Part shown: positions 21 through 7,403 of the stretch, piece after piece | How positions within the stretch are numbered: the stretch's first letter is position 1 | Layout: the number at the start of each line of letters is the position of its first letter | Origin: a virus | Taxonomy: Duplodnaviria > Heunggongvirae > Uroviricota > Caudoviricetes | Reading direction: 5' to 3' (one strand) | DNA length: 7,486 nucleotides | Virus record (IMG/VR): IMGVR_UViG_2540341028_000010 | Translations under genes and position numbers: made by a program | The notes under the pieces: generated by a model | The model's database searches: none | The model's input: the letters and a program-made list of their open reading frames with translations, nothing else | What the model was told of the DNA's origin: nothing

Positions 21-526
21 TTATTTTAATAACCGCACCCGGCACGTTTTTCCTTTAATCTTCCCGCCCTGTAACTGTTTCCATGCTTTATGAGCAACAG
101 CCTGACGGACCGCGACATAGACATGCGCCGGATGCACGGCGATTTTGCCAATATCTGCGCCATCAAGCCCGATATCTCCTGTCAGTGCACCTAATACATC
201 ACCCGGGCGCATTTTGGCTTTTTTCCCGCCATCGATACACAACGTTGCCATTTCTGCTTCCAGCGGCACAATGGAACTATTAGCTGGCGGCGTTTGCCAG
301 TTAAGTTTTATCTGCAACATGTCAGAAATGATATTGGCCCGCTGTGCTTCTTCCGGAGCACAGAAACTGATCGCCAGACCGCTATTTCCTGCACGAGCTG
401 TACGGCCGATGCGATGTACATGAACTTCAGGGTCCCACGCCAGCTCAAAGTTCACCACCAGCTCAAGCGATTTAATATCCAGACCACGCGCAGCAACATC
501 AGTCGCAACCAGTACACGGGCGCTAC
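21..526 (-). pseudogene. dbpA: 3' portion (~168 codons) of ATP-dependent RNA helicase DbpA gene; 5' part removed/displaced by IS insertion
   Basis: Minus-strand frame is open and continuous from 526 down to the stop at 21-23. Translation ...[46 protein letters not shown]... contains DEAD-box motif VI ([10 protein letters not shown]) followed by a C-terminal RNA-binding-like region. The reading frame runs straight into the IS terminal repeat that begins at 527. Assignment to dbpA is from recalled sequence, not a search. Confidence 0.8.
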
Positions 527-580: not shown

Positions 581-907
581 ATGACTAAAAATACTCGTTT
601 TTCCCCCGAAGTCCGTCAGAGGGCGATTCGTATGGTTCTGGAAAGTCAGGGCGAATATGACTCACAGTGGGCGGCAATTTGTTCCATTGCCCCAAAGATT
701 GGCTGTACACCGGAGACTCTGCGTGTCTGGGTACGCCAGCATGAGCGGGATACCGGAGGCGGTGATGGCGGGCTCACCACCGCTGAACGTCAGCGTCTGA
801 AAGAGCTGGAACGTGAAAATCGTGAACTGCGCCGCAGTAACGATATCCTTCGCCAGGCTTCCGCTTATTTTGCGAAGGCGGAGTTCGACCGCCTCTGGAA
901 AAAGTGA
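581..907 (+). CDS. IS3-family transposase OrfA (HTH DNA-binding subunit), 108 aa
   Basis: ATG at 581 preceded by a purine-rich SD (aaagaggtaaacagg). Protein [51 protein letters not shown]... has an HTH followed by a leucine-zipper-like C-terminus ([26 protein letters not shown]), typical of IS3 OrfA. Stop at 905-907 lies just after the A5G slippery run. Confidence 0.85.
899..904 (+). other. Putative programmed -1 ribosomal frameshift window (AAAAAG) at the orfA/orfB overlap of the IS629-like element
   Basis: orfA codons AAA(899-901) AAG(902-904) TGA(905-907); orfB is open in the -1 frame from this point (GTG 904, ATG 907). IS3-family elements make an OrfAB fusion by -1 slippage on A-rich heptamers. 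The run here is G AAA AAG, one A short of the canonical A AAA AAG. Confidence 0.45.
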
Positions 908-1795
908 TGCCACTGCTGGATAAGCTGCGTAAGCTGTACGGGGTCGGACCGGTATGCAGTGAACTACATATTGCCCCGTCAACGTATTACCACTGTCAGC
1001 AACAGCGACATCATCCTGATAAACGCAGTGCCCGTGCGCAGCGCGATGACTGGCTGAAGAAAGAGATACTGCGCGTATACGATGGGAATCATCAGGTATA
1101 CGGTGTGCGTAAAGTCTGGCGTCAGTTGTTACGGGAAGGTATCAGAGTGGCCAGATGCACTGTGGCACGTCTCATGGCGGTTATGGGACTTGCCGGTGTT
1201 CCTCCGGGGTAAAAAGGTCCGTACGACCATCAGCCGGAAAGCCGTTGCCGCAGGCGACCGCGTAAACCGTCAGTTCGTGGCAGAACGACCTGACCAGCTG
1301 TGGGTGGCTGATTTTACTTACGTCAGCACATGGCAGGGCTTCGTCTATGTGGCGTTCATTATTGATGTGTTTGCCGGATACATCGTGGGGTGGCGGGTCT
1401 CATCGTCCATGGAAACGACATTCGTGCTGGATGCTCTGGAGCAGGCGTTATGGGCCCGTCGACCGTCCGGCACGGTCCATCACAGTGATAAAGGTTCTCA
1501 GTATGTATCGCTGGCCTACACACAGCGGCTTAAGGAAGCCGGATTACTGGCATCAACAGGAAGTACAGGCGACTCGTATGACAACGCGATGGCGGAGAGC
1601 ATCAATGGTCTTTACAAAGCGGAGGTAATACACCGTAAGAGCTGGAAAAACCGTGCAGAAGTGGAACTGGCCACACTCACGTGGGTGGACTGGTATAATA
1701 ATCGACGATTGCTGGAAAGGCTGGGCCACATCCCTCCGGCAGAAGCAGAAAAAGCTTATTATGCTTCCATCGGAAACGATGATCTGGCAGCCTGA
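904..1795 (+). pseudogene. IS3-family transposase OrfB (DDE integrase-type catalytic subunit), interrupted by a frameshift near 1190-1205
   Basis: The N-terminal part (904-1212, ...YGVRKVWRQLLREGIRVARCTVARLMAVMGLAGV then PPG-stop) and the DDE catalytic part (frame of 1082-1795, ...LRGKKVRTTISRK...RPDQLWVADFTYV...HSDKGSQYVS...DSYDNAMAESINGLYKAEV...) lie in different frames. The switch point is the C-rich run gttcctccgggg around 1193-1203, consistent with a 1-bp indel. Confidence 0.7.
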
Positions 1796-2189: not shown

Positions 2190-2328
2190 TTGCTAAAAAA
2201 AGCCGCCAGCGGCAGGAATGGAAGCTGGCGGAGGTAATCCCAATGGAGAATGTAAAGAAAAGATGCTTTCGTACATTGGTTTTTTAAATGAAAACAATTC
2301 TCATTGTCAACCATAACGGTAAGAAATT

Positions 2329-2511
2329 ATGACATTTATTCATCAGGTGATGCTGTACTTCTGTACGGCGGTCTGTGTGCTGTATCTTCTTTCGGGTGGG
2401 TACAGGGCTGTGCGCGATTTCTGGTGCAGGCAGATTGATAAAAGGGCCGCTGAGAAAATCAGCGCCAGTCAGTCAGCCGGAAGCAAACCCGAAGAACCCG
2501 TTACTCCTTAA
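2329..2511 (+). CDS. Hypothetical small membrane protein (60 aa)
   Basis: ATG at 2329 with a weak purine-rich RBS (ggtaagaaatt). Hydrophobic N-terminal segment (LYFCTAVCVLYLL) followed by a basic/polar tail. Sits in the AT-rich region upstream of the holin. No recognised homology. Confidence 0.3.
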   Translation: MTFIHQVMLYFCTAVCVLYLLSGGYRAVRDFWCRQIDKRAAEKISASQSAGSKPEEPVTP

Positions 2512-2536
2512 CAACCCCTTTCAGCGAGAAAATCCC

Positions 2537-2782
2537 ATGTCAGAAATCACATCCCTGGTCACTGCAGAGGCAGTGAAGGAAGTCCTGCGCTCTGAAGAAG
2601 TCCGGAGCGCACTGAAACAGAAACTTCGCCAGAATCTTGAGTCGCGTCTTGATGCAGAAGTGGATGCCATTCTGGATGAGCTGCTGGGCGTAGCAGCGGT
2701 TCCTGAGCCGGAAGGTATCGCGGGTGACGGGAGTGCTTCAGATGGCGGTGAACCTACACCTGACAGCGACATGATGATGTAA
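2537..2782 (+). CDS. Hypothetical small acidic protein (81 aa)
   Basis: ATG at 2537, 26 nt after the preceding ORF stop. [81 protein letters not shown] is helical-looking with a strongly acidic C-terminus. The long track ORF 2375-2782 probably starts at this internal ATG. Function unknown. Confidence 0.4.
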
Positions 2783-2858
2783 GCATGCGCAAGGGACCAT
2801 CGGTGTGTGCCGGTGGTCTTTATATTGTTGTGAGCTTCCGGATTGCGGGAGACGGGGT

Positions 2859-3074
2859 ATGTACCAGATGGAAAAAATCACAACAGGTGTGTCATACACC
2901 ACGTCAGCGGTGGGAACGGGCTACTGGTTCCTGCAGTTGCTGGACAGGTTTTCCCCGTCTCAGTGGGCGGCAATAGGCGTGCTGGGGAGTCTGTTGTTTG
3001 GGCTGCTGACATATCTGACTAACCTGTATTTCAAAATCAGAGAGGACCGTCGTAAGGCGGCGCGGGGAGAGTAA
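2859..3074 (+). CDS. Class II holin (pinholin), phage 21 S-like, 71 aa with dual-start motif
   Basis: [71 protein letters not shown]: two transmembrane segments and the basic C-terminal tail [13 protein letters not shown], closely matching recalled S21/essD/essQ-type holins. Two in-frame ATGs (2859 and 2868, M1 and M4). GGGAG at 2847-2851 lies 7 nt upstream of the first ATG. Confidence 0.8.
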
Positions 3075-3078
3075 AGCG

Positions 3079-3423
3079 ATGAAGAAAAAATACGAACTGG
3101 TTGTTAAAGGGATAAATAATTACCCGAATAAGATTACTGTTACTGTGGCACTGGAAATTGGTGGGTATCCGTCACTGTTGTTGCCAGATGTGGCGATTAG
3201 TCTTGACCGTACTGAAGATGCCACGCTGGAGTTTTACGAAGCTGAGGCGAAAAAGCAGGCGAAGCAGTTTTTCATGGATGTTGCTGCCGGGTTATGTGAA
3301 GGGGATGGTCCGTTGCCGGAAAAGCGCCCCGTAATTTTAGAGGCGCAGGATGTGTTGATAACCTACAGAGGAAAACTACCGGGAATAATTACTGGTTCTC
3401 TGAAGACTCCACCGCTGGCCTGA
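3079..3423 (+). CDS. DUF1327-like prophage protein (YdfR-like), 114 aa, lying between holin and endolysin
   Basis: ATG at 3079 with SD gggagag 8 nt upstream; starts 4 nt after the holin stop, suggesting translational coupling. Protein MKKKYELVVKGINNYPNKITVTVALEIGGYPSLLLPDVAISL... matches my recollection of the ydfR-type gene found between essQ and rrrQ in Qin-like prophages. Not verified by search. Confidence 0.6.
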   Translation: MKKKYELVVKGINNYPNKITVTVALEIGGYPSLLLPDVAISLDRTEDATLEFYEAEAKKQAKQFFMDVAAGLCEGDGPLPEKRPVILEAQDVLITYRGKLPGIITGSLKTPPLA

Positions 3424-3473
3424 AGACTTAACATATCCAGGGATTTGAAATCGATAAACCCTGATAAATATCC

Positions 3474-4007
3474 ATGAACACCAAAATCAAATACGGCCTG
3501 TCGGCTGCCGTTCTGGCGCTGATTGCCGCAGGTGCGCCTGCGCCTGAAATCCTCGACCAGTTTCTGGATGAAAAGGAAGGTAACCACACCACGGCATACC
3601 GTGATGGCGCGGGTATCTGGACCATCTGCCGCGGTGCCATCCTGGTGGATAGTAAACCTGTCGTCCCGGGCATGAAGTTGTCGAAGGAAAAATGCGACCA
3701 GGTCAACGCCATTGAGCGTGATAAGGCGCTGGCATGGGTGGAGCGCAATATTAAAGTGCCGCTGACCGAACCCCAGAAAGCGGGTATCGCGTCATTTTGT
3801 CCCTATAACATTGGCCCCGGTAAGTGTTTCCCGTCGACGTTTTACAGACGGATTAATGCTGGTGACCGCAGGGGAGCATGCGAAGCGATTCGCTGGTGGA
3901 TTAAGGACGGTGGCAGAGACTGCCGTATCCGCTCAAATAATTGCTACGGTCAGGTATCCCGGCGAGACCAGGAAAGTGCGCTGGCGTGCTGGGACATCGA
4001 CAGATAA
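3474..4007 (+). CDS. SAR endolysin (phage lysozyme, T4-lysozyme-like fold), RrrQ/YdfQ-like, 177 aa
   Basis: N-terminal Gly/Ala-rich weakly hydrophobic segment (LSAAVLALIAAGAPAP), typical of signal-arrest-release endolysins. Catalytic spacing E35-x8-D44-x5-T50 (DEKEGNHTTAYRDGAGIWT) matches the T4 lysozyme E11/D20/T26 pattern. Positioned after the pinholin as in phage 21-type lysis cassettes. Confidence 0.85.
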   Translation: MNTKIKYGLSAAVLALIAAGAPAPEILDQFLDEKEGNHTTAYRDGAGIWTICRGAILVDSKPVVPGMKLSKEKCDQVNAIERDKALAWVERNIKVPLTEPQKAGIASFCPYNIGPGKCFPSTFYRRINAGDRRGACEAIRWWIKDGGRDCRIRSNNCYGQVSRRDQESALACWDIDR

Positions 4008-4096
4008 GCAGAATATTTTGCTGAAAATAAGGCATGAGCACGCGGACGGATAACACGAAATCCTGCGAACTGGCGAAACGTAAGTGAATAAAAGTA

Positions 4097-4136
4097 AAAA
4101 CCCCGTTTGTTGGCACCAGGCGGGGTTTTGTGTTTC
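4097..4136 (+). terminator. Putative rho-independent terminator / hairpin downstream of the endolysin gene
   Basis: aaaaccccg (4097-4105) pairs with cggggtttt (4121-4129) around a 15-nt loop, followed by a T-rich tract (ttgtgtttct). The loop is long, so strength is uncertain. Confidence 0.4.
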
Positions 4137-4162
4137 TGACCTTGAGTAAGGCAAGGGAGAAC

Positions 4163-4345
4163 ATGGCGAAGTATAAACGAATTCTGTTGAGGTTGACCAT
4201 GAAAAACGGCCTTGAACTGAAAGCGCCTGTAACTGATGACATCAGCAGAGCACTGGCTTTTGCCATTAAGTGGGTGGCGGTCGGTGTTGCTGTGTCCCCG
4301 ATGCTGTATGGGCTGGCAAAACTGGTCATTGCGTTGAAATCGTGA
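4163..4345 (+). CDS. Hypothetical small protein (60 aa) with C-terminal hydrophobic/amphipathic segment
   Basis: ATG at 4163 preceded by purine-rich aagggag. MAKYKRILLRLTMKNGLELKAPVTDDISRALAFAIKWVAVGVAVSPMLYGLAKLVIALKS. Located in a ~480-bp insert between the endolysin and Rz genes. Confidence 0.5.
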   Translation: MAKYKRILLRLTMKNGLELKAPVTDDISRALAFAIKWVAVGVAVSPMLYGLAKLVIALKS

Positions 4346-4359
4346 AGGGAGGATTAAGC

Positions 4360-4491
4360 ATGTCAGACAAACTCATAACGCTGGCGAAGATCCTCTGTGT
4401 AATTGTCGGCATTTCATTTTCACTAATGCTGGTTGCTCTTTTTCTTTCCATGGCCTGGATGATGTTGTCTTCGTCGGGGCTGCTGGGGTGA
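4360..4491 (+). CDS. Hypothetical single-pass membrane peptide (43 aa)
   Basis: Strong SD aagggagg 7 nt upstream of ATG 4360. MSDKLITLAKILCVIVGISFSLMLVALFLSMAWMMLSSSGLLG is almost entirely one transmembrane helix. Its stop (4489-4491) overlaps the GTG at 4488 and lies 11 nt before the ATG at 4503 of Rz. Confidence 0.45.
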   Translation: MSDKLITLAKILCVIVGISFSLMLVALFLSMAWMMLSSSGLLG

Positions 4492-4502
4492 ACATAAACC
4501 GA

Positions 4503-4886
4503 ATGCTTTCCGCGTTTACCGTTATTCTGCTGGTGGTCTGTGGTGCGCTGTGGCTGGCAACAGACCATTACCGTGATAACGCCATCACCTACAAAGCGCA
4601 GCGCGATAAAAAAGCCAGAGAGCTGGAGCTGGCAAACGCAACCATTACTGACATGCAGCAGCGCCAGCGTGATGTTGCCGCTGGTCGTAAGCGCCTGCGG
4701 ATCAACGCCACCTGCTCCGGTACCGTGCGTGAAGCCACCGGCACCTCCGGAATGGATAATGCAACCGGCCCCCGACTGGCAGACACCGCTGAACGGGATT
4801 ATTTCACCCTCAGAGAGCGGTTGATGACAATGCAGAAGCAACTGGAAGGGGCGCAGGAATATATCCGCACTCAGTGTATTAACTAG
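4503..4886 (+). CDS. Rz-like i-spanin (inner-membrane spanin subunit), apparently shortened (~127 aa)
   Basis: N-terminal TM (MLSAFTVILLVVCGALWLA) followed by HYRDNAITYKAQRDK... and the conserved C-terminal PRLADTAERDYFTLRERLMTMQKQLEGAQEYIRTQC, matching lambda-type Rz. An alternative GTG start at 4488 is in frame. About 25 residues of the central coiled-coil seem absent relative to recalled lambda Rz. Confidence 0.75.
   Translation: MLSAFTVILLVVCGALWLATDHYRDNAITYKAQRDKKARELELANATITDMQQRQRDVAAGRKRLRINATCSGTVREATGTSGMDNATGPRLADTAERDYFTLRERLMTMQKQLEGAQEYIRTQCIN
4672..4824 (+). CDS. Rz1-like o-spanin embedded in the +1 frame of Rz; signal peptide appears truncated (possibly non-functional)
   Basis: +1 frame encodes MLPLVVSACGSTPPAPVPCVKPPAPPEWIMQPAPDWQTPLNGIISPSESG: the proline-rich mature region and C-terminus match lambda Rz1. 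Only 8 residues precede the lipobox Cys, and the upstream in-frame sequence is polar with no ATG. Confidence 0.45.
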   Translation: MLPLVVSACGSTPPAPVPCVKPPAPPEWIMQPAPDWQTPLNGIISPSESG

Positions 4887-4909
4887 TATTTTTGTTATCC
4901 GGAGAATGC

Positions 4910-5134
4910 ATGAAGAAATTACTGGTAACCGTAAAGCCTTTTCAGGGAACAATTCCGTTCCGTATTTTGCAGCGTGGTCGTGTTCTTGTTGAAGGTTCGT
5001 TCAGTGGTAAATGTACGCAATTACACTCCCGGACCTTTCAGGTGAATGCCACGAATGAAGAGCTAACCGTTGAGTGTACGATGAATGCCGCTAAATGCCG
5101 CATGGTATCCGCTGCATTACAGCCAGTGTGTTGA
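4910..5134 (+). CDS. Hypothetical protein (74 aa) downstream of the spanin genes
   Basis: ATG at 4910 with GGAG 5 nt upstream. MKKLLVTVKPFQGTIPFRILQRGRVLVEGSFSGKCTQLHSRTFQVNATNEELTVECTMNAAKCRMVSAALQPVC. Occupies the post-Rz slot where lambdoid phages often carry accessory genes; no recognised homology. Confidence 0.45.
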   Translation: MKKLLVTVKPFQGTIPFRILQRGRVLVEGSFSGKCTQLHSRTFQVNATNEELTVECTMNAAKCRMVSAALQPVC

Positions 5135-5221
5135 GCGACCTTATTAACCATGCGCGGTATTGTCGCCGTATCCCCGCATTAACAGAGACCGCAGCCTGAG
5201 GTGTACTGGCAATAGCGGACA

Positions 5222-6058
5222 CTACCATTTGTTCTTTTTTTGAGCAGCCATCTGATGATATTTTTCCCTGAAGGCTGCCGGGGAGATATTCCCCAGACGA
5301 GAGTGACGACGCTGACGATTGTAGAAAATCTCAATGTATTCCCGTATTACTGAGATGGCTTCATCCCGGTTATTAAAACGATAGTGGCTCAGGCTCTCAT
5401 TTTTCAGCGTTCCCCAGAAGCTTTCCATCGGAGCGTTGTCGTAACAGTGACCTTTACGCGACATTGATGTTTTCAGACCAGACTGCTCCTGTATGACCCG
5501 GTAATCGTATGCGCAGTACTGTGAACCTCGATCAGAGTGGTGGATTAGCCCGGCAGGTGGGCGTTGGCTCCTGAGCGCCATAAACAGGGCTTTACCTGTC
5601 AGCTCTTTTGTCATGCGCTCTCCCATGGCGTAGCCGACAATTTCGCACGTATAAACATCTTTGATGCCAGCGAGGTACAACCATCCCTCCTGTGTGGCAA
5701 CATACGTCAGGTCCGCCACCCAGACCTGATTTGGTGCTGTAGGAGCGAACGTCTGGTTCAGCAGATTTGGCGCAACTGGAAGATTGTGGTTCGGGTTCGT
5801 AGTCGCTCTGAACTTGCGTTTCTGCTTACAGCGTAGCCTTAGCTCCTTACGAAGACGTGCCAGTCGGTCACGACCAACGATGATGCCATTCTCTGCCAGC
5901 TCCGTCTGGAGCCGCCGGGTTCCATATGTTTCGCGAGTGCGGATATGTGCCACCTTAATCTCCAGTTTTAGCCGCTCATCACTTTGTTTTCTGTCTGAGG
6001 GTTCATGCTGTACCCAGTTGTAATAACCGCTCCTGGATACACCAAATACCTGACACAT
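5222..6058 (-). CDS. IS3-family transposase OrfB (DDE catalytic domain), 278 aa from the first ATG; normally expressed as an OrfAB fusion
   Basis: Contains the DDE region ...PNQVWVADLTYVATQEGWLYLAGIKDVYTCEIVGYAMGERMT...HHSDRGSQYCA...DNAPMESFWGTLKNE.... The -1 frame is open from the slippery site at 6139-6145 through to the stop at 5222-5224 with no interruption. Confidence 0.85.
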   Translation of the reverse strand: MCQVFGVSRSGYYNWVQHEPSDRKQSDERLKLEIKVAHIRTRETYGTRRLQTELAENGIIVGRDRLARLRKELRLRCKQKRKFRATTNPNHNLPVAPNLLNQTFAPTAPNQVWVADLTYVATQEGWLYLAGIKDVYTCEIVGYAMGERMTKELTGKALFMALRSQRPPAGLIHHSDRGSQYCAYDYRVIQEQSGLKTSMSRKGHCYDNAPMESFWGTLKNESLSHYRFNNRDEAISVIREYIEIFYNRQRRHSRLGNISPAAFREKYHQMAAQKKNKW

Positions 6059-6093
6059 CGCTTCAATGGGAAATTGTTGTCGCCATTGTTCGA

Positions 6094-6396
6094 TTAACGC
6101 GTATTTTTCAGCGACTCCTGTGCAAAATACGCTGTTGCTTTTTTTAATATATCTCGCTCAAGGCGAGCTTCATTTAACGCCTTACGCAGTTGCAGAATTT
6201 CAGATTCCAGTTCAGCCACCGTGCGGGAACCAGGAGTACCGAGCCCTTTTCTGGCGGCGGTAACCCATTGTCCTAAAGTGCCTTCAGGAAGGGATAATCG
6301 GGAAGCGCCTTCACTGATCGAAAGTTGATTTTCAAGAACCGTTCTGACAGCTTCGGCTTTGAACTCTTTAGAGTAACGTTGGTTTTTTCTGCTCAT
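6094..6396 (-). CDS. IS3-family transposase OrfA (HTH plus leucine zipper), 100 aa
   Basis: MSRKNQRYSKEFKAEAVRTVLENQLSISEGASRLSLPEGTLGQWVTAARKGLGTPGSRTVAELESEILQLRKALNEARLERDILKKATAYFAQESLKNTR, with the classic ILKKATAYFA motif at the frameshift region. Confidence 0.85.
   Translation of the reverse strand: MSRKNQRYSKEFKAEAVRTVLENQLSISEGASRLSLPEGTLGQWVTAARKGLGTPGSRTVAELESEILQLRKALNEARLERDILKKATAYFAQESLKNTR
6139..6145 (-). other. Programmed -1 ribosomal frameshift heptamer (A AAA AAA, followed by G) linking orfA to orfB of the IS600-like element
   Basis: Plus-strand T7 run at 6139-6145 is A7 on the minus strand, then G at 6138. orfA frame reads TTA AAA AAA GCA; the -1 frame continues open into orfB (...KKSNSVFCTGVAEKYALIEQWRQQFPIEAMCQVFGVS...). 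Confidence 0.6.
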
Positions 6397-6724: not shown

Positions 6725-6744
6725 TATCTGTGCCGGGAATGAAA

Positions 6745-7071
6745 ATGAAAAGAAACCTTCCGTTAATTATTTTGTTGTCTTCTCTGGTTATGGGCTGTAC
6801 GCAACATAAAACAGATATGCCCCGACAGTTGGTTAAGGCATTACCACAATATCCGGCCTATGCAGCGGCAAATTATATAAAGGGACGGGTTGATGTGAAG
6901 TTTGATATTGGTGCTGATGGTACTGTCACCCGAATTGAGTTTATCCGTTCAGAGCCGCACCATTTGTTTGATGAGCAGGTTGTAAAGGCGATGGCAAAAT
7001 GGCGATTTGAGAAGGACAGGCCGTGTAAAGGCGTGAAGAAAACGTTTATCTTTAGTCCTTCTGCACCCTGA
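6745..7071 (+). CDS. Small lipoprotein with TonB C-terminal (TonB_C)-like domain, about 108 aa
   Basis: Signal peptide with lipobox-like LVMGC (MKRNLPLIILLSSLVMGC). Mature part LPQYPAYAAANYIKGRVDVKFDIGADGTVTRIEFIRSEPHHLFDEQVVKAMAKWRFEKDRP fits the TonB_C pattern (YP..A....I.G.V.V.F.I...G.V.........F.......A...WRF). GGGA lies 6 nt upstream of ATG 6745; in-frame ATG 6739 and GTG 6730 are alternative starts. Confidence 0.7.
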   Translation: MKRNLPLIILLSSLVMGCTQHKTDMPRQLVKALPQYPAYAAANYIKGRVDVKFDIGADGTVTRIEFIRSEPHHLFDEQVVKAMAKWRFEKDRPCKGVKKTFIFSPSAP

Positions 7072-7202: not shown

Positions 7203-7403
7203 TCATTTCTCGTTATTTTTCATGCTGGCCGGGCGCAGATGCGTTGCATCTGTTGCCAGCCTTCTCCTGCAGGCTTCAATAACCCACGCTGAAAAGTTTC
7301 CTGAACCTTTCAGATCAAGAGCGATGTTAATTTGTTCAATCATCTGGTTTGGAAATCGGATGTTGCGGGTTGTTGTTCTGCGGGTTCTGTTCTTTGATGA
7401 CAT
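7203..7403 (-). CDS. Small ribbon-helix-helix (Arc/MetJ/CopG-like) putative DNA-binding protein, 66 aa
   Basis: Minus-strand ATG at 7401-7403 with ggggaaa SD upstream. Basic N-terminus then IRFPNQMIEQINIALDLKGSGNFSAWVIEACRRRL, which looks like a beta-strand followed by two helices as in RHH folds. Convergent with the lipoprotein gene. Confidence 0.6.
   Translation of the reverse strand: MSSKNRTRRTTTRNIRFPNQMIEQINIALDLKGSGNFSAWVIEACRRRLATDATHLRPASMKNNEK

Follow-up and report, generated by a model that had tools for sequence, protein, structure and literature searches.

The stretch studied here, called the window, is the whole 7,486 nucleotides (nt) taken from IMG/VR virus record IMGVR_UViG_2540341028_000010, and all coordinates are window positions. 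It is the leftover lysis region of a lambdoid prophage, with IS3-family insertion sequences (IS) cutting it on both sides. The phage genes run in the order DUF6645 remnant, DUF1378, DUF826, holin, DUF1327/YdfR, lysozyme, a region of two small open reading frames (ORFs), and Rz. That region is our subject. The endolysin stop (4007) and the Rz ATG (4503) are separated by 495 bp, which hold a hairpin, an ORF of 60 amino acids (aa), p60, and one of 43 aa, p43. An earlier note, made from the letters alone, had described the hairpin and both ORFs between endolysin and Rz, and every one of these elements is present where it was drawn. We argue that p60 and p43 are genuine genes, judging from conservation and structure models, for what are predicted to be small inner-membrane peptides of the late lysis unit.

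Selection was measured on about 170 related loci taken from phage records, IMG/VR and genomes, which gave 18 distinct nucleotide versions of p60 and 14 of p43. The ratio of nonsynonymous to synonymous polymorphism (pN/pS) is 0.15 for p60 and 0.41 for p43. Each is the lowest of the six frames, and each frame is free of stop codons. Variable sites at the three codon positions number 4/1/14 in p60 and 16/10/21 in p43. The constraint on p60 equals that on the endolysin (pN/pS = 0.12), and p43 is less constrained.

The Kyte-Doolittle maximum over 19 residues is 1.88 for p60 and 2.89 for p43. AlphaFold2, run with family alignments, gives p60 a helix at residues 2-16, a short loop and a second helix at 23-59 (predicted local distance difference test, pLDDT, 79); p43 is modelled as one helix at 2-38 (pLDDT 89). 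The predicted layout of p60 is a basic amphipathic N-terminal helix followed by a C-terminal transmembrane (TM) helix. The motif FAIKW..S...YG is invariant in p60, which has a possible internal start at M13 (4199). In p43 the residues D3, K4, K10, C13, G17, S19, F20, W33 and G43 are kept across homologues that are 57-98% identical.

There is also expression evidence for p43. Its homologue in E. coli O157:H7 Sakai is XECs191 (MMGWLMISDKLITLVKSLCVLVGISFLVMLVAIFFSTAWRVLTLSGLVG), listed as a 'novel small gene' and predicted to be an inner-membrane protein with one TM helix (PMC5597208). In LB medium its signal was weak, at 30.0 reads per kilobase per million (RPKM) in RNA-seq and 12.6 RPKM in ribosome profiling (RIBOseq) with a coverage of 0.55 (PMC5597208). 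The low signal comes from uninduced cultures, and spontaneously induced cells could be its source (PMC5597208). Taken together, purifying selection, hydropathy, the AlphaFold2 helices and the RIBOseq signal of the p43 homologue (PMC5597208) bear out the earlier claim of two real small membrane-protein genes.

The earlier note did not recognise either product, and the databases name no family for them. The PHROG matches span the full peptides and are all of unknown function: phrog_1115, phrog_4493 and phrog_3246 for p60, and phrog_4906 for p43. Neither peptide matches a profile of the PHROG lysis category or of a holin family. Pfam, NCBIfam and PADLOC have no match for p60, p43 or their 45-aa and 50-aa relatives (Pfam and PADLOC at E <= 1). 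An exhaustive search of 1.84 billion proteins with a p60-family profile returned 22 cluster representatives, all of them short peptides except for one weak match, at the E threshold, to a 928-aa protein, and no link to a larger or known protein emerged. A scan of species-representative genomes with the p60 profile gave no relative. Since the representatives are so few, with none in the species-representative genomes, the p60 family must be narrow and accessory. We found no functional study of p60 or p43 in the full-text literature. The two ORFs are already in the databases and common there, conserved as coding yet unnamed, often unannotated, unstudied and without an established function.

Two simple origins were tried and rejected. 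If p43 were a duplicated N-terminal anchor of Rz, an alignment would be expected, but there is none at E <= 100 and shuffles give no support. p60 and p43 are not paralogues either, with an hhalign probability of 4.5% and only a short V.VG...S.ML motif in common. Some genomes have a single 83-aa ORF (P0213) that is p43 fused in frame to the C-terminal part of p60. This implies that small indels can join both peptides where p43 precedes a p60 remnant.

A leader cassette and a variable slot

On comparative grounds, the hairpin forms the 5' portion of a leader that is conserved and belongs to a mobile promoterless cassette. The leader is about 85 nt long and consists of an AT-rich stretch, the 13-bp stem-loop, an invariant TTTCTG(C)ACCTTGAnnAAGGCAAGGGAGAA and the start codon. 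Among E. coli and Salmonella phages we found 43 distinct variants of the leader. The stem-loop has a folding energy of -18.5 kcal/mol (z = -2.1). Its pairing is retained in 97.7% of cells in the close set of variants, and six pairs are altered on both sides in a 12-sequence alignment. At one stem position 7 of 10 sequences have a G.U pair, and the window itself has two such pairs. The frequency of G.U pairs implies that the structure is selected on the plus-strand RNA. The RNAalifold consensus predicts a second hairpin, in which the Shine-Dalgarno (SD) region pairs with an upstream UUCU..CCUUG; these columns are invariant, so covariation is uninformative, and the energy of -9.4 kcal/mol (z = -0.9) is not significant by itself. 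From the hairpin tail to the p60 ATG there are only 26 nt. The spacer of about 88 nt that follows the R stop shows no special conservation (mean pairwise difference 0.19 versus a synonymous diversity of 0.27 in R), and a consensus scan of it found no promoter-like site. Rfam at E <= 1 gave only the ALIL pseudoknot elsewhere in the window and a chance rimP-leader match on the hairpin.

A scan of IMG/VR for the exact leader motif found at least 120 stretches. An ORF of at least 25 aa can be called in all but 8 of the 120 listed, and the products are 32-60 aa long. The intact cassette peptides share a design of a basic or amphipathic N-terminus, one hydrophobic helix and an end in ..ALKS, ..AIKG or ..IRWW. 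p60, a 45-aa peptide (p45) and a 50-aa peptide are all of this type. The p60 family as a whole spans 42-66 aa, and its peptides all come after the one conserved leader. About 90% of the cassettes among the 120 matches listed lie between the endolysin and Rz. Outside this slot, SEN34-like myoviruses carry the cassette at a junction of baseplate spike and wedge genes. Other copies are at further late-gene junctions, some beside tail-fibre genes. A diverged p60 relative in Salmonella lies 3' of a tail-fibre assembly gene with hairpins on both sides. The loci that have the same or a diverged form away from lysis genes are L094 (2938-3260), L175 (1700-1932), L187, L189, L220, L246, L247 and L258. 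Each phage has one copy (56 records, 56 places), and a single copy with a conserved leader suggests horizontal movement.

Not every slot begins with this leader. Where ant occupies the slot (L005, L006, L007), a different terminator-like hairpin, GGCACCGTAATGGTGCC with a T tract, lies about 90-125 nt after the R stop. There are two alternative hairpin types after the R spacer, one before the small peptides and another before ant. A hairpin 3' of the endolysin gene is kept whichever module comes next.

Of 5426 complete E. coli genomes, 990 have the full 495-bp spacer and 2121 have parts of it; the best E. coli match is 98.8% identical. PhiR5_2 and PhiR12_x, which form plaques, also carry the full region. 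Exact copies of p60 turn up on about 1000 contigs or more, and so do those of p43. The earlier note proposed comparing the R-Rz region across Qin-like prophages, and a comparison of related loci finds the insert to be variable. In BP-4795, Lys19259Vzw, 933W and VT1-Sakai the slot holds ant and then a p43 homologue. It holds a third small TM ORF, then p43, then a 38-aa C-terminal remnant of p60 in vB_EcoS-569R3 and PhiR5_1. A 45-aa ..IRWW peptide fills it in CP-1639, H-19B and Stx2c phages, and a 50-aa hybrid peptide in GER2. In Salmonella p60 is the sole occupant, flanked by a class II holin and a SAR-like lysozyme (SAR, signal-arrest-release) that both differ from those of the window. Other lysis functions show the same pattern, one position filled by different small TM peptides. 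The earlier note had also likened the cassette to that of Qin. This likeness holds for the S, YdfR and R genes; it fails at R-Rz, where rrrQ and rzpQ of K-12 Qin overlap and Rz is of a different type (DUF2514). The slot is empty there, so p60 and p43 are indeed an insert relative to the canonical S-R-Rz order.

The association with Rz is strongest in the phages that carry Shiga toxin (Stx) genes. p43 homologues occur just before Rz in 276 phage records, most of them from Stx phages, and the 45-aa peptide, which looks unrelated, in 53 more; Rz homologues occur in 674. Sorting by record name, 124 records of Stx2a-converting phages have the Rz, of which 115 have p43 and 8 the 45-aa peptide. For Stx1a-converting phages the figures are 35 and 11 of 47, and for Stx2c-converting phages a small peptide is present in 15 of 17. 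The unannotated 153-bp gap between ant and Rz encodes a p43 homologue in both 933W (L096 2039-2191) and VT1-Sakai (L097 2039-2191). Most Stx-phage records have no feature in the ant-Rz gap. Spacing is tight, with 11 nt between p43 and Rz in 131 and 16 nt in 19 of 157 loci. In the window the p43 TGA is 11 nt upstream of the Rz ATG and overlaps an alternative GTG start (4488), and in BP-4795 ant and p43 overlap by one base. Among the Sakai supplement entries that are listed, which are part of the whole, there is none for peptides of the p60/p45 type (PMC5597208). The small ORFs go unmentioned in a review of 279 Stx phage genomes, where the cassette consists of pinholin, SAR endolysin, Rz/Rz1 and often Ant (PMC8136144). 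Neither the near-universal small ORF before Rz in Stx phages nor the conserved leader cassette appears to have been described before. Both were overlooked in the earlier note, which saw the hairpin but not the conserved mobile leader it belongs to, and p43 but not its almost constant presence beside Rz in Stx phages, where it mostly lacks annotation.

Neighbouring genes and the state of the prophage

The features of the window are collected in Table 1. The lysis genes around p60 and p43 are those of a pinholin and SAR endolysin system. The holin S begins MYQMEK, as do 121 of its relatives in related loci; 4 begin MKSMDK. The two methionines of MYQMEK (2859-2870) make a 'dual start' that is without the lysine seen in MKM and MKSM starts. 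It is this lysine that makes the longer holin product an antiholin in lambda (MKM) and phage 21 (MKSM). The DUF1327/YdfR gene after the holin is 63-100% identical in related loci, or else missing or swapped for other sequence, which makes it a second variable slot. The endolysin begins MNTKIKY, and its N-terminal segment reads directly as hydrophobic and rich in Gly and Ala. Its homologues in Stx phages have been termed R21-like SAR endolysins (PMC8136144).

Table 1. Features of the 7,486-nt window, listed by position.
Feature	Position	Strand	Details
dbpA 3' end (RNA helicase gene)	21-458	-	DbpA RNA-binding domain; truncated by left IS
Left IS3-family element	581-1795	+	Transposase domain; ALIL frameshift pseudoknot at 862-978, Rfam 116 bits
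Class II (phage 21 type) holin/pinholin S	2859..3074	+	Pfam Phage_holin_2_1 E = 3.7e-32; PHROG holin; tblastn start 2859
DUF1327 (YdfR-like) gene between holin and endolysin	3079..3423	+	Pfam DUF1327 E = 2.4e-45
SAR-type endolysin R	3474..4007	+	Pfam Phage_lysozyme E = 2.8e-24; SAR-like N-terminus MNTKIKYGLSAAVLALIAAGAPAP
Leader hairpin 1 and T tract	4097..4139	+	Stem-loop 4097-4129, 13 pairs, then TTTTGTGTTT; terminator-like by scan
Invariant leader segment with SD	4130..4162	+	TTTCTGACCTTGAGTAAGGCAAGGGAGAAC; core identical in the 43 distinct leader variants
p60, 60-aa peptide	4163..4345	+	Preceded by AAGGGAGAAC; phrog_1115 E = 2.6e-42; RefSeq WP_001151823.1 hypothetical protein
p43, 43-aa single-helix membrane peptide (predicted)	4360..4491	+	Preceded by AAGGGAGG; phrog_4906 E = 2.1e-23; RefSeq WP_001280932.1 hypothetical protein
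Rz i-spanin	4503..4886	+	Pfam Phage_lysis E = 9.9e-33, two stretches; alternative start GTG 4488
Rz1 o-spanin remnant	4672..4824	+ (+1 frame)	Intact MRELKMKLFALTLPLVVSAC (L001) versus ..SSASVMLPLVVSAC in the window
74-aa ORF 3' of Rz	4910-5134		phrog_2571 (function unknown), profile positions 100-172 of 291 only
Right IS3-family element	5222-6396	-	Transposase domain
113-aa protein	6730-7071	+	TonB_C domain; N-terminus lipoprotein-signal-like by eye (LVMGC)
DUF3950 (YnfO/YlcI-like) gene	7203-7403	-	Beyond right IS

The spanin genes have suffered. Rz has lost 25 codons in frame between two DVAA-coding repeats and is 127 aa long, against 152 aa when intact. Exactly this 127-aa protein has the database name 'lysis protein [Shigella]'. 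Along with the IS load and a best E. coli match short of 100%, the name points to a Shigella genome. The deletion also took the start codon and the signal-peptide n-region of Rz1, which implies that the spanin of this prophage is probably dead; S, DUF1327, R, p60 and p43 are intact. The p60/p43 cassette of the window sits in a decayed Shigella prophage with its spanin genes already damaged.

The remaining features belong to the edges. The dbpA 3' end to the left of the first IS implies that the prophage remnant adjoins the dbpA locus. The two transposases look like those of IS629 and IS600, elements typical of Shigella. The right IS starts a little 3' of the 74-aa ORF, whose intact relative (L001 4979-5203) is a RefSeq hypothetical protein of the same length. 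The TonB_C-domain protein and the DUF3950 gene to the right of the second IS are typical small prophage cargo.

Possible roles of the peptides

The earlier note suggested lysis timing, superinfection exclusion or toxicity as candidate functions, and its cautious reading is supported. We tentatively favour a role in lysis, in which p60 and p43 would be accessory peptides of the inner membrane, expressed late, that tune the membrane step of lysis by pinholin and SAR endolysin. RNA polymerase would reach the two genes only through the hairpin. With entry by that route alone and no sigma-70-like promoter between R and p60, the peptides would be made only by a Q-modified, terminator-resistant polymerase. 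Their synthesis would coincide with that of holin, endolysin and spanin on the Q-antiterminated late transcript. Translation may pass in order from p60 to p43 to Rz by coupling, and coupling is expected at the last step because the Rz ATG, read directly, has no good SD of its own. The peptides could then adjust the triggering of the pinholin, or whether the anchor of the SAR endolysin is retained or released; they would modulate timing or act like antiholins, and would not be essential lysis proteins. Late, low-level inner-membrane peptides in a lysis unit would most simply be modulators of the membrane step.

Several observations fit. The wide occurrence of the region, the tight spacing of p43 to Rz, the hairpin kept through compensatory changes, the lack of a plus-strand promoter-like site between R and p60 in the consensus scan and the preference of the cassette for the endolysin-Rz slot all count in favour, as do the weak RIBOseq signal of the Sakai p43 homologue (PMC5597208) and the precedents of P1 lydE (PMC9025707) and Mu gp25 (PMC9239132). 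Both p60 and p43 combine a TM helix with a position in the lysis cassette, as holins and antiholins do. The p60 homologue of Salmonella is in the same slot despite a different holin and SAR-like lysozyme, and we count this in favour of lysis. p60 residues 35-51 (4267-4317; KWVAVGVAVSPMLYGL), the most conserved part of the peptide, resemble the first half of the second TM domain (TMD2) of the pinholin (2958-3005). As a clue to an antiholin-like action this resemblance is a weak lead.

It must be noted that much can be said on the other side. The TMD2 resemblance is equalled by 0.1-0.4% of shuffles, which is borderline after about 25 comparisons, and it is absent from p43, from the other p60-family members and from the Salmonella holin. 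Neither peptide ends like a holin: the C-terminus of p60 (..LVIALKS) is without the typical highly charged hydrophilic tail, and that of p43 (..SSSGLLG) is without a charged holin-type tail. Related phages seem to manage alone. Qin has an empty slot and a different Rz, the Rz of lambda is about 70% identical yet a p43 search gave no homologue there, and phage 21 presumably does without both peptides. A search of 2200-5300, including R to p60, found no promoter-like site on the plus strand, but it used a simple consensus that a weak or non-sigma-70 promoter could escape. Among the matches listed, about ten cassettes are at other late-operon sites, and the p60/p45 family members at baseplate and tail-fibre junctions are easier to reconcile with a free-standing accessory gene than with a component reserved for lysis. 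In a plasmid assay, lysis was unaffected by the removal of lydE, a comparable gene of phage P1 (PMC9025707). Finally, the link between peptides and lysis is one that we infer, and this too counts against it.

The first alternative is an accessory role unrelated to lysis, which ranks nearly as likely as lysis tuning. Stated in full, and as such rather unlikely, p60 and p43 would be 'moron-like' membrane peptides that act on a target in the host or a competitor. Superinfection exclusion, protection of progeny from re-adsorption or injection, and modulation of a host inner-membrane protein are all possible roles. This would explain why the cassette is variably present, why the slot is mosaic, and why the insertion is between genes that are adjacent in Qin. 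Family members at tail-fibre and baseplate junctions bracketed by hairpins, and a single-copy cassette whose conserved leader suggests horizontal movement, are also what one would expect of such genes. Lambda and Qin do without the cassette, and exclusion genes inside or beside late operons are known in Pseudomonas phages (bioRxiv 10.1101/2024.03.05.583538). However, exclusion usually pays in a lysogen, and with no promoter-like site and a hairpin upstream instead of downstream, expression in a lysogen is not expected. The strong preference for the endolysin-Rz slot and the tight coupling of p43 to Rz do not follow from such a role either, and PADLOC gives no match at E <= 1.

One can also imagine that p43 is mainly a translational coupling device, a short ORF that brings ribosomes to Rz once insertions of ant or p60 have split R from Rz, with a peptide of little function. 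We consider this improbable. The missing SD of Rz, the short distance of 11-16 nt between p43 stop and Rz start (150 of 157 loci), the one-base overlap with ant in BP-4795 and the relaxed pN/pS of p43 all suit a coupling device. However, its pN/pS is still below 1 and the lowest of six frames, and a mere device would not need to keep its length, hydrophobicity and specific residues across homologues as divergent as 57% identity. In vB_EcoS-569R3 and PhiR5_1, p43 is not even the ORF beside Rz.

Least probable is that the peptides are toxins of a type I toxin-antitoxin system or of abortive infection, silenced by RNA structure or antisense RNA: their size and hydrophobicity fit, the predicted fold of the invariant leader takes the SD into a hairpin stem, and a minus-strand promoter-like site (4199..4170) could drive antisense RNA over the p60 start and end at the hairpin, but that site matches at only 9 of 12 positions, such sites are not enriched (2 in the region versus 2.7 expected from shuffles), the G.U pairs of the hairpin work only on the plus strand and become C.A mismatches on the minus strand, there is no Rfam family and no Pfam, NCBIfam or PADLOC similarity, and a separate toxin would be redundant in a lytic late operon.

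The tuning of lysis by p60 and p43 can be taken further, into a proposal that we regard as speculative and, on balance, unlikely. The slot peptides (p43, p60 and the 45-50-aa ..IRWW forms) would form a new class of regulators that act in trans on pinholin/SAR-endolysin lysis. A mobile promoterless Q-dependent cassette, its structured leader throttling translation, would carry them, and they would help to set the lysis time of Stx phages. If this is true, the slot peptides help to determine how much Shiga toxin and phage are released, since the timing of Stx-phage lysis controls the toxin and phage output of an induced Shiga toxin-producing E. coli cell. 

The Stx lysis cassette has so far been treated as S, R, (ant) and Rz/Rz1. 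Nearly every Stx phage record with this Rz has a conserved small membrane ORF adjoining it. Neither the 933W nor the VT1-Sakai annotation includes this ORF, which implies that the inventory of a medically important lysis system probably has gaps. With its conserved hairpin and leader, the cassette that takes p60/p45 peptides from one temperate phage to another, be it lambdoid, myovirus-like or of another kind, is a compact example of a late gene that is mobile and has no promoter. Should the peptides turn out to have no measurable effect, they would count as hitch-hiking ORFs, and the annotation would still be corrected.

Comparison with known systems

Among the closest known systems is XECs191, a direct homologue of p43 with both an RNA-seq and a RIBOseq signal (Huecker et al. 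2017, PMC5597208). It was one of several hundred candidate ORFs in that paper, where its position before Rz, its spread in Stx phages and its function are undiscussed (PMC5597208).

The gp25 releasin of phage Mu (DUF2730) is tethered to the membrane, has a cytoplasmic part and acts together with a SAR endolysin (PMC9239132). The Mu SAR endolysin has a short cytoplasmic N-terminus with two basic residues, and the MNTKIKY start of R in the window is similar. However, gp25 has an N-terminal TM domain and p60 is reversed, with the cytoplasmic helix first and the TM domain last. Mu has no pinholin, whereas the cassette of the window has one. p60 does not appear to be a releasin, since it matches neither DUF2730 nor any other Pfam family at E <= 1 and its TM domain is at the wrong end.

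Lambdoid morons reportedly include bor and lom of lambda and gp15 of HK97, and are said to have been treated by Juhala et al. in 2000. Morons and the late-operon exclusion genes of Pseudomonas phages (bioRxiv 10.1101/2024.03.05.583538) resemble the p60/p43 cassette in being variable mobile inserts, often for membrane proteins, with hairpin borders. Classical morons have their own promoter, a downstream terminator and expression in the prophage, whereas p60 and p43 have no detected promoter, a hairpin upstream and a last ORF that runs into Rz. A moron would be expected to have its own terminator downstream; here only 11 nt separate p43 from Rz, while the Salmonella tail-fibre copy does have a downstream hairpin.

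The intragenic antiholins S107 of lambda and S21-71, known from work of the Young laboratory, are alternative translation products of the holin gene itself. Like them, p60 and p43 may offer an inner-membrane helix able to disturb the packing of holin helices, and residues 35-51 of p60 weakly resemble TMD2. Unlike them, p60 and p43 are separate genes, and their interaction with the holin is putative only.

Further analogies are found in phages P2 and P1. In P2, lysA, reportedly characterized by Ziermann et al. in 1994, is said to encode a membrane protein, to lie between the endolysin gene K and lysB/lysC for the spanin, and to have a mild effect on timing. In P1, lydE is a small accessory gene beside the SAR endolysin and a suspected antipinholin (PMC9025707). 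Neither is related in sequence to p60 or p43, and LysA is larger with several TM segments. What they have in common with p60 and p43 is a gene for a small or membrane protein right after the endolysin or pinholin gene in the late lysis unit, and both lysA and lydE are non-essential, suspected tuners of lysis timing.

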